Below, piece by piece: positions 3,023 to 8,233 of a DNA stretch of 64,000 nt. Location of the stretch: the IMG/VR virus record IMGVR_UViG_3300002835_000134, positions 1-64,000 of that record, one strand, 5' to 3'. Every line of letters begins with the position of its first letter. The stretch's first letter is position 1. Under the pieces are notes generated by a model. That model saw only the letters and a program-made list of their open reading frames with translations, ran no database searches and was not told where the DNA came from. Made by a program: the position numbers and the translations under genes. The stretch comes from a virus.

Positions 3023-3142
3023 ATGAAATGTAACTTTTGCGATAATCCAAAATACATAGAGCGTATGAACTCTAAAGGCGTACTTGAAAATTTTTGTCAG
3101 AGTTGTATTACAAAATTAATTAGCGGGAACCGAGTAAGTTGA
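3023..3142 (+). CDS. small Zn-finger protein (CNFC...CQSC)
   Basis: Hand-translated; TGGTATACT-N6-ATG. Confidence 0.6.
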   Translation: MKCNFCDNPKYIERMNSKGVLENFCQSCITKLISGNRVS

Positions 3143-3236
3143 GCTGGATACAGGCATCAGTTATATTTGGACCAATAATAATATTGATCATTGCATTTTG
3201 GGATGATATAAAATAAAGCAGTTGACTAGGATATAT

Positions 3237-3778: not shown

Positions 3779-4288
3779 ATGAATAGTTTAATATTAACTT
3801 TTCCAAGATGCGGATCATTCTATCTGCAACAACTTATTCATCAAAATTCTGGAATCATGCTTCCAAAAAGCCATATCATAGAAGGGTCTGATAAAAAAGA
3901 TTTAATATCTATCATTAGGAATCCACAAGACTCTATTAAGTCTATGATTTCGATGGAAATGCATTACAATAAAGATTACAGATTTAACTTAAAAGATATA
4001 GAAAGATCTTATATAGAAATGAATGATTATTTAACTAATAATAATGCATTATTGATTAGGTACGAAGACTTACTAGACAAGCCACAAGAAATAACAAAAA
4101 GAGTTTGTAGGTTTTTAGGTAAAGAGATTTTAAGTGTTAACTACGTTAACGTTCTAAAAGACATTAAAGAAGACAATCACTTGGTATCCAGCAAAGACTC
4201 TAAATATTATCTACTTGTAGACATAAAAAAAGAAGATTTAGTTGATGCCAACGAGTCCTATTTTAAAACTTTAGAAAAATGTATTTAG
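3779..4288 (+). CDS. sulfotransferase-like P-loop protein
   Basis: TFPRCGS (5'-PSB-like), IIRNPQD, IRYEDL motifs. Confidence 0.75.
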   Translation: MNSLILTFPRCGSFYLQQLIHQNSGIMLPKSHIIEGSDKKDLISIIRNPQDSIKSMISMEMHYNKDYRFNLKDIERSYIEMNDYLTNNNALLIRYEDLLDKPQEITKRVCRFLGKEILSVNYVNVLKDIKEDNHLVSSKDSKYYLLVDIKKEDLVDANESYFKTLEKCI

Positions 4289-4302: not shown

Positions 4303-4854
4303 TTATTTTTTTATTAAGCATATACCTTGACCTCTTAGCTCAATTTCTGTAATGTCATTAAAAAAGTCTCTAACTGCTTTTTCGGCACCGTATGAGAAAC
4401 CTTCATGAAAATTAGTTATTACCCAACCTCCAGGAATAACCTTATCCCAAAAGAATTCTAAAGAATCCTTTGTCGGTTGATATAAACTTAGGTCTAAATG
4501 TAGCAATGCTATAGGTCTATCTTTTATCTCGTTAAATCTAGATGGTATCCATCCTTTATAAAAATAAATATTTTTATATTCTGATAAAACATTTTTGCAT
4601 ACATCAATTTCAGACTTCCAGGTAAGCTCTTTGTATATAGGGTTATCGAATTCTCCTACTTCAGAAAGCCCTTCCCATGAATCAAATAGGTGAAGATCTT
4701 TTTTACAATGCTTTGCTAATTTTTCTGCAGATGATCCAGTCCAGCTACCACACTCTACAAAATCACCATCAGGAATAGAGAGATTTAATAATGTTGCATC
4801 AAACTCTAATGCCCATTCTTTATTTACCGTAGGGTATGTAATTCTATTTACCAG
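4303..4854 (-). CDS. TylF/MycF-family O-methyltransferase, non-canonical (CTG or ATT) start
   Basis: Frame open well upstream of track ORF: GDFVECGSWTG, FDSWEG, KGWIP, HLDLSLY. Confidence 0.75.
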   Translation of the reverse strand: MVNRITYPTVNKEWALEFDATLLNLSIPDGDFVECGSWTGSSAEKLAKHCKKDLHLFDSWEGLSEVGEFDNPIYKELTWKSEIDVCKNVLSEYKNIYFYKGWIPSRFNEIKDRPIALLHLDLSLYQPTKDSLEFFWDKVIPGGWVITNFHEGFSYGAEKAVRDFFNDITEIELRGQGICLIKK

Positions 4855-5668
4855 CTCTGTTTTCTAGTTCGTCTCTTAGTTTATCTTGAGCAGTAGTACG
4901 CTCCTGGATCATGTCGGCAAATTGAGGGTTAACTCTAAACGGAGAGTTCCAGTCATTTAGCTGTCTTTCAGTAGGATTTTCATGTCTTCCTATCTGCTCT
5001 TCCCATTCAGGGGTTTTGTAATTATAGAATGTTCCTGGATTGTCCTCTGCAAGTAACGCAAAAGTTGAAAATGCGTATCTGGTTCCAGAAAGAGTTTCCA
5101 TTGTTCCGTGATCGTATGGAGAGCAAGCTCCATGTAAAACTATGTCTCCAGGCTTTACTGGAACGATTAAGCACGGCTCTGCCATTTTTGCTTCATCTAT
5201 TCTTAGGTTGCCAGTCTTTTCTGTGCCGTCTGGATTTATGTTTGGATAGTATAGTTCTCCGCCAGTAAAGTCTCCAATGTATGCAATCATTCCATACTCT
5301 AGTTCACAACAAGTTGACCATTGATCAATTTCCAATAATAGGTGACAGTTTCCTTTTCCAGGGCTATCGGTATGTACAAACATTCCTTCGTCTCCAGGAC
5401 CAGTAACCATAAGGTTCCTTACTGGGTGAATAACAATTTCAGGGTGTATCAATTCAGACATGAACTTCCAAAGAGGGAAGGTCTCTTTAAATGGAGGGCT
5501 CATCTTGTCTGCATACCAGTCTCTAACGCTCCACAAATTTGGGTTAGAGTGTCTTTCAAATTCTTGTCCTCTAGCGTATACCGCATCGTAGATATCTTTT
5601 GGAATTACATTTTCAAATTTGTATATTCTTGGAGCTAACTTTATACAGCGTGGATCGTCATAAAACAT
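4844..5668 (-). CDS. 2OG-Fe(II) oxygenase, prolyl-hydroxylase-like
   Basis: HTD...DFTGGEL...H...GTRY. Confidence 0.85.
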   Translation of the reverse strand: MFYDDPRCIKLAPRIYKFENVIPKDIYDAVYARGQEFERHSNPNLWSVRDWYADKMSPPFKETFPLWKFMSELIHPEIVIHPVRNLMVTGPGDEGMFVHTDSPGKGNCHLLLEIDQWSTCCELEYGMIAYIGDFTGGELYYPNINPDGTEKTGNLRIDEAKMAEPCLIVPVKPGDIVLHGACSPYDHGTMETLSGTRYAFSTFALLAEDNPGTFYNYKTPEWEEQIGRHENPTERQLNDWNSPFRVNPQFADMIQERTTAQDKLRDELENRAGK

Positions 5669-5808
5669 TATTTCTTCTTTCTCTTAAATAATTTTTTTAA
5701 AAAGTTTTCAATTTTTGCTTCTAACTTACCAGCATGACTATCCTCTTTATAATGACGGGATCGAAAGTACGGGCTCTGCATAGCTTTGGAAAAATGATCT
5801 CTTGCCAT
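5668..5808 (-). CDS. small basic protein (46 aa, MARDHFSKAMQSPYF...)
   Basis: RBS AGGAGG; TGGTATAAT at 5844-5836. Confidence 0.65.
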   Translation of the reverse strand: MARDHFSKAMQSPYFRSRHYKEDSHAGKLEAKIENFLKKLFKRKKK

Positions 5809-5855
5809 GATTAACCTCCTAAAAGATGTTAATTAATTATACCACTAAAAGCATT

Positions 5856-5938
5856 AGAAAACCCCTAATCAGAGGCGGATCCGATTAGGGGTTTAAGGAC
5901 TTTCGCCCTATACAGGGAGTACGAATACTCAACCTGAA
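5856..5938 (-). ncRNA. candidate small RNA (three hairpins, intrinsic terminator)
   Basis: Own promoter; UUCG and GAAA tetraloop hairpins; 14-bp terminator stem with U tail; no ORF. Confidence 0.65.
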
Positions 5939-5943
5939 TACTA

Positions 5944-5972
5944 AGTGTATATTTAATGCCTTACAAAGTCAA
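5944..5972 (-). promoter_or_regulatory. promoter TTGACT-17-TACACT driving the candidate sRNA
   Basis: Near-consensus boxes, 17-bp spacer. Confidence 0.7.
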
Positions 5973-5975
5973 GCA

Positions 5976-6599
5976 TTATTTCCAAACTAGGCCTTGTCCA
6001 GTAGGTAGCTCTAATATTTTATCTTTACCAAAAAAATCATCCATTGCTTTTCTTGCACCAATAGTTTTATATGAACCATAATCGTCACAAATAATAACGC
6101 CACCAGGAACAATTTTTGGCCAGAAATAGTTTATTGAGTCTTTTGTAGGTTCGTATAAATCAACATCAATATGAACATAAGAATAGTTCAGGGGTTCTAT
6201 TTTTTCAAAAACATCAGGTATCCATCCAGCATATAGCTCTGGGCTTCTGCATCCTTCTAGGATAAGTTTGGCTCTGTCGATTGGAATTTCTAGTTTAACT
6301 GTTTTAAAGTAATCAGTATCAAATTCTCCAGGCTCTGAAACTCCTTCAAAAGAATCTATTCCTATAAATCTTTTATCACACAAGTCTTGAACAAAATACA
6401 TTGACATTCCTGCATATACACCGCACTCCGCAAAATTTGCATGAAGCTTTGCCTGTTGAATTGCTATTTGTCTTAGAACATACAGCCTTCCATAAAAAGG
6501 GCTATTTATATCATTAGACATATTAGCCTTTTTGTTTAATGCATCGTGAATAGATGTAAATACGGGGTCGTCAACCCATCTTGCTACAGATGATTCCAA
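5976..6599 (-). CDS. TylF/MycF-family O-methyltransferase
   Basis: AECGVYAG, DSFEG, HIDVDLY, PGGVIICDDY. Confidence 0.9.
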   Translation of the reverse strand: MESSVARWVDDPVFTSIHDALNKKANMSNDINSPFYGRLYVLRQIAIQQAKLHANFAECGVYAGMSMYFVQDLCDKRFIGIDSFEGVSEPGEFDTDYFKTVKLEIPIDRAKLILEGCRSPELYAGWIPDVFEKIEPLNYSYVHIDVDLYEPTKDSINYFWPKIVPGGVIICDDYGSYKTIGARKAMDDFFGKDKILELPTGQGLVWK

Positions 6600-6806
6600 T
6601 TACTCTTCTGTTCCTATTAATTGCCAGCTAGGATGATGTGTAACCATTCCTCTAATTGCTAAGCACTCTTCTTCAGAATTTGCAGTAACGATAAGCTTTG
6701 CATTTATGCCATTAGGAAATTCTTCTGACCTGTCTAGGCCGTTAGCATTTTCCCTAAAGGTTTGTAATACAACTTCTGTAATTGGCTCAAATATATATTT
6801 AGTCAT
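6600..6806 (-). CDS. hypothetical protein
   Basis: Track ORF in tightly packed operon. Confidence 0.65.
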   Translation of the reverse strand: MTKYIFEPITEVVLQTFRENANGLDRSEEFPNGINAKLIVTANSEEECLAIRGMVTHHPSWQLIGTEE

Positions 6807-6987
6807 TTATAATACCCTTTTCTAAAAGAACGTCATATAGAGCAATTGCAATAACCTTAAAAGATTCATTGCCCTGTTCCATATATACCTTCTGATCTTC
6901 TTCCGATGTACCAGCTCTAGAATATAGATCCTTCATCGTATCGATTATCGAATTCAACATTATGTCTAATGTATCTTGTCTACTCAT
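6799..6987 (-). CDS. hypothetical protein (MSRQDTLDIML...)
   Basis: Track ORF 6799..7023; start chosen after AGGAG. Confidence 0.65.
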   Translation of the reverse strand: MSRQDTLDIMLNSIIDTMKDLYSRAGTSEEDQKVYMEQGNESFKVIAIALYDVLLEKGIIND

Positions 6988-7195
6988 TTGTTTCTCCTGG
7001 ATTATAAGAAGGCGACGGCCCAAGTAAGTAACCCGCCTGATGATATTCTACCATTTTAGCAGTATCTTCGCTACCAGCTAATTTATTAGATATCAAAGTC
7101 AATATGTCATATATTCTATGAAGCATGATATACGAGACCATAGGGAGATTGTCCTCTAAGTTGCTTGTATTTTCGTTATTCTGGTCTTCCTGCAT
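6980..7195 (-). CDS. hypothetical protein
   Basis: Track ORF. Confidence 0.65.
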   Translation of the reverse strand: MQEDQNNENTSNLEDNLPMVSYIMLHRIYDILTLISNKLAGSEDTAKMVEYHQAGYLLGPSPSYNPGETNE

Positions 7196-8057: not shown

Positions 8058-8233
8058 TTCCTCCTATAGAGATAACGAACTACAATCATAACATTAATAT
8101 ATAGACAATGTCAACCTAGTTAACTAAAATAGTTAAACATATTTAAGGCACTAGACCGCTAAATAAAAGTTTGATACACTAGGACTTCATCTAAAAATTA
8201 TACCGCAAGGCGGAGAAAAGGTCGTATAAAAAA

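Follow-up and report, generated by a model that had tools for sequence, protein, structure and literature searches.

What is encoded on the minus strand at positions 5857-5941 of the IMG/VR virus record IMGVR_UViG_3300002835_000134, and does its product act on the phage's own replication genes? The window analysed here is the first 64 kb of this 72.6-kb record, and positions refer to the window unless stated otherwise; G000 denotes the whole record, other G numbers relative genomes and L numbers relative loci. The original prediction, made from the sequence alone, was of a small RNA (sRNA) of about 80 nt whose terminator loop is complementary to the word AGGCGGA near the starts of DNA-replication genes, and which would tune their translation in trans. 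The feature is far beyond chance: its base pairs covary and it is conserved in more than 100 distinct copies from other phage contigs. Gene anatomy, loop invariance and the placement of the complementary word are likewise matters of observation, and we are highly confident that the RNA gene is real. The proposal that it would specify a trans-acting phage sRNA of ~83 nt, with an invariant loop tuning the translation of replication genes, seems to us evenly balanced between right and wrong.

The locus contains the following features:
5967-5972, minus strand: −35 box of the sRNA, TTGACT, read from the sequence
5944-5949, minus strand: −10 box of the sRNA, TACACT, read from the sequence, with a 17-nt spacer to the −35 box
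~5941-5937, minus strand: predicted, unmapped start of the sRNA, 5-8 nt past the −10 box
5857-5941, minus strand: predicted sRNA of ~82-85 nt, its ends placed from the promoter and terminator
5913-5936, minus strand: hairpin 1, CAGG-UU-GAGUA(UUCG)UACUC-CCUG, with outer stem CAGG/CCUG, UU bulge and inner stem GAGUA/UACUC
5896-5909, minus strand: hairpin 2, AGGGC(GAAA)GUCCU, with a tetraloop
5859-5894, minus strand: terminator hairpin, followed by a UUUU tract at 5858-5861
5874-5879, minus strand: hexaloop UCCGCC in the terminator hairpin
5873-5880, minus strand: invariant 8-mer AUCCGCCU, the UCCGCC hexaloop plus its closing A-U pair, the proposed seed
5836-5844, minus strand: extended −10-like word TGGTATAAT ahead of the small downstream open reading frame (ORF), read from the sequence

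The predicted promoter is present on the minus strand (5972-5967 and 5949-5944), and hairpins 1 and 2 can be read in the sequence as originally described and were reproduced by RNAfold, which gives exactly three hairpins. The terminator stem with its UCCGCC loop and U tail is there as well, with 15 pairs by RNAfold in place of the 14 claimed; this stem (5894-5859) with UUUU directly after it has the make-up of an intrinsic terminator. The minimum free energy of the RNA was −36.5 kcal/mol as compared to −19.9 +/- 3.0 in 200 dinucleotide shuffles (z = −5.6), none of which folded as stably. No minus-strand ORF of 30 amino acids (aa) or more lies inside the RNA, in agreement with the claim that it lacks one, and substitutions in the family track base pairs, not codons. 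Past the terminator follow TGGTATAAT (5844-5836), AGGAGG and the ATG of a 46-aa ORF, and the RNA therefore looks like a separate transcription unit; the relative loci L016, L020 and L033-L043 likewise have a TGnTATAAT-like word past their terminator. At the level of sequence, the element is thus an independent non-coding unit with a promoter and a terminator of its own, and a covariance model of the family matches 5852-5944 of the window at 96 bits.

An Rfam search and a covariation analysis among related phages had been proposed as checks. No family in Rfam 15 reached its gathering score anywhere in the window, and at E <= 10 only chance-level matches were obtained for window positions 5600-6200 and for the relative L105; the RNA is uncatalogued. 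A blastn search with 5600-6300 gave no match among 50,697 phage records, and the 20 matches of a strict three-part pattern to 185,579 species genomes were chance hits in high-GC coding DNA without the hairpins. The family model R1 found no copy in 151 genomes of one actinobacterial order, chosen through a metagenome-assembled genome (MAG) as a stand-in for the host and thus of little weight; all family copies found sit on viral contigs. Literature listings on phage and actinophage sRNAs and on non-coding RNAs of Streptomyces phages yielded no account of the element.

Sequence comparison places the RNA in a large family that is shared among hundreds of freshwater contigs, from uncultured phages akin to the Streptomyces cluster-BE phages. 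Relatives picked via the methyltransferase protein, independently of the RNA, bear the same element, with compensatory changes in all three hairpins (for example, AGGGC/GUCCU is replaced by AGAGC/GCUCU or UGCAU/AUGCA). An initial family model, made from 14 copies, picked up diverged members in a further subgroup, ahead of its methyltransferase; hairpin 1 is wholly different there and the terminator loop is unchanged. A pattern based on the loop matched at least 119 stretches, giving at least 101 distinct variants.

For the covariation analysis, 94 distinct copies among the matches listed were aligned to the model. The fraction of paired cells was 97.0%, as compared to 75.1% in shuffles, and changes on both sides were seen in 18 of the 22 pairs, which bears out the expected covariation. 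The covariation score was 0.479 as compared to 0.145 in shuffles (reached by 0/500) and 0.03-0.07 with slid partners; since the alignment was fitted to the model and includes 3-4 antisense terminator rows, these figures lean slightly toward structure, with the effect still very large. In hairpin 1 (helices 1 and 2), two-sided changes occur in 9/9 pairs and 94-98% of the cells are paired. Hairpin 2 covaries freely, with compensatory changes in all five pairs and with GAAA, GCAA, GUAA and UUCG among its loops, while the terminator (helix 4) is 99.6% paired and has compensatory changes in 4 of the 8 modelled pairs. The promoter is conserved too: TTGACN-17-TANNNT precedes 89 of the 124 distinct copies among the matches listed, the spacer being 17 nt in 88 of the 89, and near variants are present in most of the remaining copies. 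The −10 box is TACAAT in 45 copies, TATAAT in 19, TATACT in 14 and TACACT, as in the window, in 6. With at least 120 distinct copies in lake phages and strong covariation, this uncatalogued RNA family merits an Rfam entry and offers a convenient metagenome marker for the phage clade.

Two variations on the architecture were noted. A large subfamily has a second C-rich word, GCAUCCCAC, in the apical part of hairpin 1 (for example L105, 4556-4571), in structures that differ; it is absent from the window's copy and may be a second seed. In L179 the full sRNA is accompanied by a second, bare terminator hairpin, whose loop is identical and which comes immediately after a coding region.

Since patterns that contain the loop cannot show that it is invariant, we used two samples chosen without it. 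For sample (a), we took the best 80 of more than 550 loci encoding homologues of ORF X, a gene conserved on the upstream side of the sRNA, 77 of which had at least 250 nt downstream. The exact word GGATCCGCCTC was found in 69 of these 77 loci; L260 and L292 differ in the stem only (CAGAUCCGCCUCUG and UAGAUCCGCCUCUA, respectively) and keep UCCGCC, and the other six have no sRNA in the available sequence, which ends early, has inserted genes or is an adapter chimera. The contig of L295 holds an Illumina adapter at ~1890-1960 and is a chimeric assembly in IMG/VR. Sample (b) was selected with a 16-nt hairpin-1 word, which gave 88 distinct matches, 15 in unrelated coding sequence and 73 in sRNAs. 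The usual word was present in 71 of the 73, the others being L354 (CCGA-UCCGCC-UUGG) and L367 (CGAA-UCCGCC-UUUG). A-UCCGCC-U was thus unchanged in 71/71 and 73/73 sRNA copies, and AUCCGCCU is the only stretch without any change in the loop-unbiased samples, while the stem beneath it changes compensatorily in L260, L292, L354 and L367. An invariant hexaloop on a covarying stem is the picture of a conserved seed in a trans-acting sRNA. The 8-mer is the exact complement of AGGCGGAU, that is, AGGCGGA plus one base, so that the heptamer singled out in the original prediction corresponds exactly to the invariant part. A reading of the conserved stretch as a GGATCC palindrome or restriction site was rejected: L260 and L292 have AGATCC, L354 has CGATCC and L367 GAATCC, all with the loop kept.

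How the RNA would be made, what it would pair with, and the direction and timing of its effect we infer as follows. Host RNA polymerase would transcribe the sRNA abundantly from its promoter, probably early because the promoter is near-consensus and of the sigma-70 type, and the intrinsic terminator would end it. Hairpins 1 and 2 would form a structural scaffold, the working part being the invariant C-rich hexaloop 5'-(A)UCCGCC(U)-3', which would pair with 5'-(A)GGCGGA(U)-3' words at Shine-Dalgarno (SD) positions of dnaB, dnaE and the gene that follows the phrog_9440 ORF; further messages, of the phage or of the host, may be targets as well. With six to eight G-C-rich pairs formed there, the 30S subunit would bind less readily, or would be impeded in re-initiating where stop and start codons overlap, and the outcome would be a chaperone-free tuning of replisome synthesis, most likely downward.

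Four copies of AGGCGGA had been put forward as targets, and all lie where they were said to (62165-62171, 61280-61286, 61420-61426 and 8208-8214):
62165-62171, plus strand: AGGCGGA 5 nt before the dnaB ATG (62177), an in-frame GGC-GGA in an upstream ORF that ends in EQGGIE-stop
61276-61292, plus strand: TGGAAGGCGGAGTAATG, copy 1 of a 17-nt repeat, where the end of the phrog_9440 gene (VWKAE-stop) overlaps the ATG of a 46-aa zinc-ribbon ORF
61416-61432, plus strand: TGGAAGGCGGAGTAATG, copy 2, at IWKAE-stop and the ATG at 61430, not independent of copy 1
8204-8214, plus strand: nrdJ leader hairpin CCGC-AAG-GCGG, with AGGCGGA (8208-8214) as its 3' half; the ATG follows after 19 nt

The dnaB site does place GGCGGA at the SD position, and its duplex with the seed is worth −13.3 kcal/mol; among 23 aligned dnaB starts, AGGCGGA is found in 13 and AGGCGG in 17. 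The same placement recurs at dnaE, beyond the stretch on which the prediction was made (ATG at 65618 of the record), where GGCGGAU lies 5 nt before the ATG. Of 21 aligned dnaE start regions, 14 have GGCGGA 4-8 nt ahead of the start, and these fall into three non-homologous contexts. In the commonest, context A, it is coding and forms the end of a small ORF (CxGGY-stop). The second places the word in the spacer aaauGGCGGAaauaaAUG after a tRNA gene, and context C is a 25-nt non-coding spacer, uuaaAGGCGGAGAguuaAUG, that reads AAAGGCGGAGA; no other ORF runs over the word in either. Two further dnaE contexts are without the word, one of them in G019, which bears the sRNA. With a start-proximal baseline of ~3% (27 sites per 878 called genes in six genomes), three of five contexts would carry the word by chance about 3 times in 10,000 (binomial, assuming independent contexts).

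The starts at 61290 and 61430 represent a single event, a duplicated 17-nt junction with the same C-terminal WKAE-stop, rather than separate sites. The direct repeat TGGAAGGCGGAGTAATG brackets the zinc-ribbon ORF (61290-61430) and the preceding ORFs both end in WKAE-stop; the ORF has the appearance of a small gene that recombination placed into the stop/start junction, and relatives have other small genes at the phrog_9440 junction. The nrdJ-leader word forms the 3' arm of a short hairpin and is not conserved: it is kept in G001 and G002 and reads UAGGCGGAAG in G005, and the sRNA-bearing G003 and G004 have lost it and retain the hairpin as CCGUAAAUCGG. In the nrdJ leader (8150-8233), a conserved extended −10-like word, TTTGATACACT, precedes the hairpin, which covaries to CCGUAAAUCGG. 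A tandem G-rich word, GGGGGGTCGGGGGGTC, was seen in the divergent region upstream of nrdJ in L089-L091 (G003-G005) and is absent from the window.

We also examined the statistics of the word. Gene calls were the longest ORFs with candidate in-frame starts, and start-proximal counts therefore carry some noise. The window has 11 copies of AGGCGGA, all on the plus strand, as compared to 2.7 +/- 1.6 in dinucleotide-shuffled sequences (0/100 reach 11); the 11 include the copy that lies opposite the loop of the sRNA itself. The replication module, with 49 of the 773 called genes in five genomes, contains 14 of their 22 start-proximal GGCGGA sites, and all three of those in G000. Among 106 distinct contexts of AGGCGGA, 16 are start-proximal, as compared to 3 of 69 for AGGTGGA. 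The start regions with the best scores for pairing with the seed include dnaB and dnaE in all three genomes scored (G000, G003 and G001). G024, a complete genome of 127 kb with 48% G+C and the only sRNA-free complete genome in the comparison, has no family-model match at E <= 1; of its six copies of AGGCGGA none is start-proximal, and its GGCGGA has a sense to antisense ratio of 8:7.

Several results weigh against a role of these words as targets. Most of the excess of AGGCGGA is a codon-pair habit: among the 122 Gly-Gly codon pairs of G000, GGC-GGA leads with 32. Synonymous shuffles give 6.0 +/- 2.5 copies of AGGCGGA, and 17 of 500 reach the observed 11, which is thus only mildly high; of the 33 sense copies of GGCGGA in G000, 29 are in-frame GGC-GGA. 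Both the dnaB site and dnaE context A are Gly-Gly codons of upstream ORFs, and the context C word contains GGAG and is possibly a plain SD. The original caveat that AGGCGGA also arises from EGG-coding sequence was well placed. In a permutation test that counted duplexes of −12 kcal/mol or stronger over all start regions, 33 of 150 composition-matched permuted seeds did as well in G000, 31/150 in G003 and 3/150 in G001. AGGCGGA is less associated with starts than a true SD word (15% as compared to 37%, or 21/57, for AGGAGGA). The sites are orthologous between genomes, so that the clustering in the module amounts to about a single observation. Nor is there a universal target, G019 having the sRNA and no dnaE site and G003 having GGGCGGGCU at dnaB. 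In the window, GAGGCGGATCC with up to two mismatches had 9 matches as compared to 4.5 expected (5/100 shuffles reach 9), none of them at a start, and the complement of the hairpin-1 word had 16 as compared to 19.4 expected.

The codon-pair habit has features of its own. GGC accounts for only 21% of the Gly codons, and GGC-GGA occurs at ~2.5 times expectation in G000. GGCGGA follows the coding sense on both DNA strands (sense to antisense 33:2 in G000). The preference was noted for the record G000 and for G001, G003, G011, G019 and G020, and is absent from G024. It may reflect avoidance of internal GGAGG, a codon-pair bias of the host or a link to the sRNA.

Enrichment of the heptamer at starts finds support in the module clustering, the dnaE contexts and the comparison with AGGTGGA, and is countered by the seed permutation and the codon-pair bias. 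As for the trans-acting sRNA on replication genes, the RNA gene and the placement at dnaB and dnaE stand, and the permutation test, the single event behind the 61290 and 61430 sites and the unconserved nrdJ site speak against it.

One alternative, which we consider unlikely, is that the invariant loop targets a host molecule, such as the G-rich ribosome-binding site (RBS) of conserved host mRNAs, as part of host takeover, and that the phage matches are incidental. The 8-mer stays fixed amid divergence of everything else in the RNA, and of the phage proteins too, as if its partner were more conserved than phage start regions, and the lack of a universal phage site and the non-significant seed permutation on phage starts point the same way. 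The sigma-70-type promoter would fit early expression, and in bacteria the sRNA 6C of the host type acts on the cell's own dnaB in a like style (PMC6486639). Against a host target, pairing with the 16S rRNA of three stand-in Actinobacteria was no better than with permuted seeds (as good in 33/200, 190/200 and 137/200), and both the clustering in the replication module and the non-coding dnaE contexts would be left unexplained. An apparent complementarity of the window's hairpin-1 word to a 16S loop was discarded, the word not being conserved in the wider family and the loop seed pairing with the three 16S genes no better than permuted seeds.

The host is very probably a freshwater actinobacterium because of the kinship of DnaB and because, in the cultured-phage collection, homologues of X occur only in Streptomyces phages (44 records). 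The window's DnaB shares 66% identity with its counterpart in Streptomyces cluster-BE phages, and the replication module also encodes a DnaG-like primase and a DnaE-type polymerase. The record is estimated to be 67% complete and has 38% G+C; portal, protease and capsid genes are present, as is a B12-type ribonucleotide reductase. Lake water is the label of the matching metatranscriptomes and metagenomes. The RNA sits between the first two of these genes:
5976-6599: TylF-like methyltransferase gene (Pfam PF05711)
5668-5808, minus strand: ORF Y, 46 aa, small and basic (MARDHFSKAMQSPYF...KRKKK), a frequent downstream neighbour
6980-7195, minus strand: ORF X, 71 aa, phrog_12271, function unknown, conserved as the neighbour upstream of the sRNA

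One cluster, X, takes 70 of the 111 upstream ORFs of family copies; in the window, X is separated from the RNA by three inserted genes including the TylF-like methyltransferase. A 274-aa ORF (4844-5668, minus strand) without a Pfam or PHROG family overlaps ORF Y via ATGA, and both recur downstream of the sRNA in relatives. The same block contains a sulfotransferase-like ORF (3779-4288) and methyltransferase-like ORFs. Pfam searches of X, Y and the 274-aa ORF gave no family, X matching only phrog_12271, and a Pfam/PHROG search of Y likewise gave none.

These neighbours bear on a second alternative, an unlikely one in our view, according to which the element is a protein-binding or decoy RNA with the loop and the hairpin-1 motif GG-UY-GAG/CUC-CC as recognition sites and Y as one candidate partner. 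The very basic small ORF follows the RNA in 23 of 99 cases, the largest downstream cluster, hairpin 1 keeps its sequence-specific bulge motif, many copies keep GCAUCCCAC in differing structural settings, and a strictly invariant 6-nt loop is also typical of protein recognition. Yet neither X nor Y showed an RNA-binding domain, most copies lack Y (76 of the 99 downstream ORFs differ), and the complementary word at replication-gene starts would be unaccounted for.

It is very unlikely that the element serves only in cis as punctuation between early gene blocks, whether for termination, insulation, antitermination or attenuation, without a function in trans. In L021-L032 it lies ~20 nt upstream of the methyltransferase start, which leaves no room for a second promoter, and the methyltransferase would therefore have to be read through the terminator; the second bare terminator hairpin of L179 directly after a coding region also suits a cis role. 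Parts of the stretch are present in 23 RNA runs as assembled contigs, and those from four runs cover 5000-5816 and 6007-6700 and not 5817-6006. No contig bridges the element or offers a usable end, which agrees with a cis role and lends a discrete sRNA no support, but is uninformative because libraries lose small structured RNAs and strain-shared sequence breaks contigs. Two RNA contigs from two studies stop at 5815/5816, which is only a weak hint of a separate downstream unit. A cis role is the least likely of the host-target, protein-partner and cis readings because termination needs no set loop, yet the loop is invariant on a covarying stem, the consensus promoter 5-8 nt before hairpin 1 is conserved and two extra covarying hairpins would be purposeless in a plain terminator. 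No antiterminator pairing was noted by eye, no computation of alternative folds having been run.

We give very little credence to a last idea, that GGCGGA would be a private ribosome-binding word of the clade's replisome and the loop CCGCC its trans-acting anti-SD stand-in, gating and possibly enabling genes poorly read by the host ribosome: it was prompted by the loop region of one subgroup, GGAUCCGCCUCCUUU, set beside the 16S 3' end of two Actinobacteria, GGAUCACCUCCUUU, and the loop flanks are not conserved (L354 CGAUCCGCCUUGG, L367 GAAUCCGCCUUUGG).

How does the element compare with known systems? In the cluster-BE phages Jay2Jay and Birchlyn, the region after the X homologue has the same position, after the phrog_12271 gene in a left-arm minus-strand block, and is folded (z = −3.5). 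Its loops, UCUG and CAAACUA, lack UCCGCC, unlike the phage RNA described here. There was no R1 match in Jay2Jay at E <= 1, and Rfam gave only chance-level matches at E <= 10, so that we rejected this region as a family member: same position, no detectable homology. It is unannotated and intergenic (L226, 2806-2945, in Jay2Jay; L227, ~3050-3200, in Birchlyn) with a conserved, unusually A+T-rich stretch before it, and may be an analogous RNA gene.

To our knowledge, phage regulatory RNAs are few and nearly all come from enterobacterial phages, and the Actinobacteria, the probable hosts of this phage group, are without Hfq. One such phage RNA is the c4 antisense RNA of phages P1 and P7, whose loops block translation at ribosome-binding regions of the phage's own message. 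c4 is processed from an operon transcript and acts on ant as its single downstream target; it comes from an enterobacterial phage and is not known to resemble the RNA described here in sequence. In Firmicutes, RNAIII and RsaE/RoxS expose C-rich motifs in loops that pair with SD regions through few G-C pairs, independently of Hfq, and the loop of the terminator hairpin can be the seed. These are chromosomal regulators, unrelated to the phage RNA in sequence and host in a comparison made by Rfam scan only.

The nearest likeness is to the actinobacterial 6C sRNA (B11, RF01066). According to PMC6486639, which also mentions RNAIII, the C-rich loops of 6C bind the G-rich RBSs of panD and dnaB without a chaperone. 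Both RNAs are short, belong to the actinobacterial world and have a C-rich loop in a terminator-like last hairpin; in 6C the C-rich loops are directed at G-rich RBSs, as is proposed for the phage RNA. The loops of a Micromonospora 6C copy, GACCCCCCCG and UCCCCCC, resemble UCCGCC in style. 6C is made up of two hairpins whose loops each hold about six consecutive C. The phage RNA forms three, looped by UUCG, GAAA and UCCGCC, and the window's copy has a single C-rich loop in which four C are interrupted by a G. The 6C model, which recovered a 78-bit copy from the Micromonospora genome as a positive control, had no match at its gathering score in the window and none at E <= 10 in 5600-6200 or in L105, a relative with an additional AUCCCAC loop. 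6C is chromosomal in Actinobacteria, whereas the phage RNA is phage-borne and its proposed targets are the phage's own genes. Given the lack of a model match, the three hairpins and the other loop, the RNA would work like 6C and is not a member of that family. If the proposed function is true, this would be 6C-style control in a phage, aimed at its own replisome genes, with a simple rule tying one six-base loop to one ribosome-binding word. The element is an uncatalogued RNA and probably represents a known kind of regulator, the trans-acting base-pairing sRNA, in a new form.

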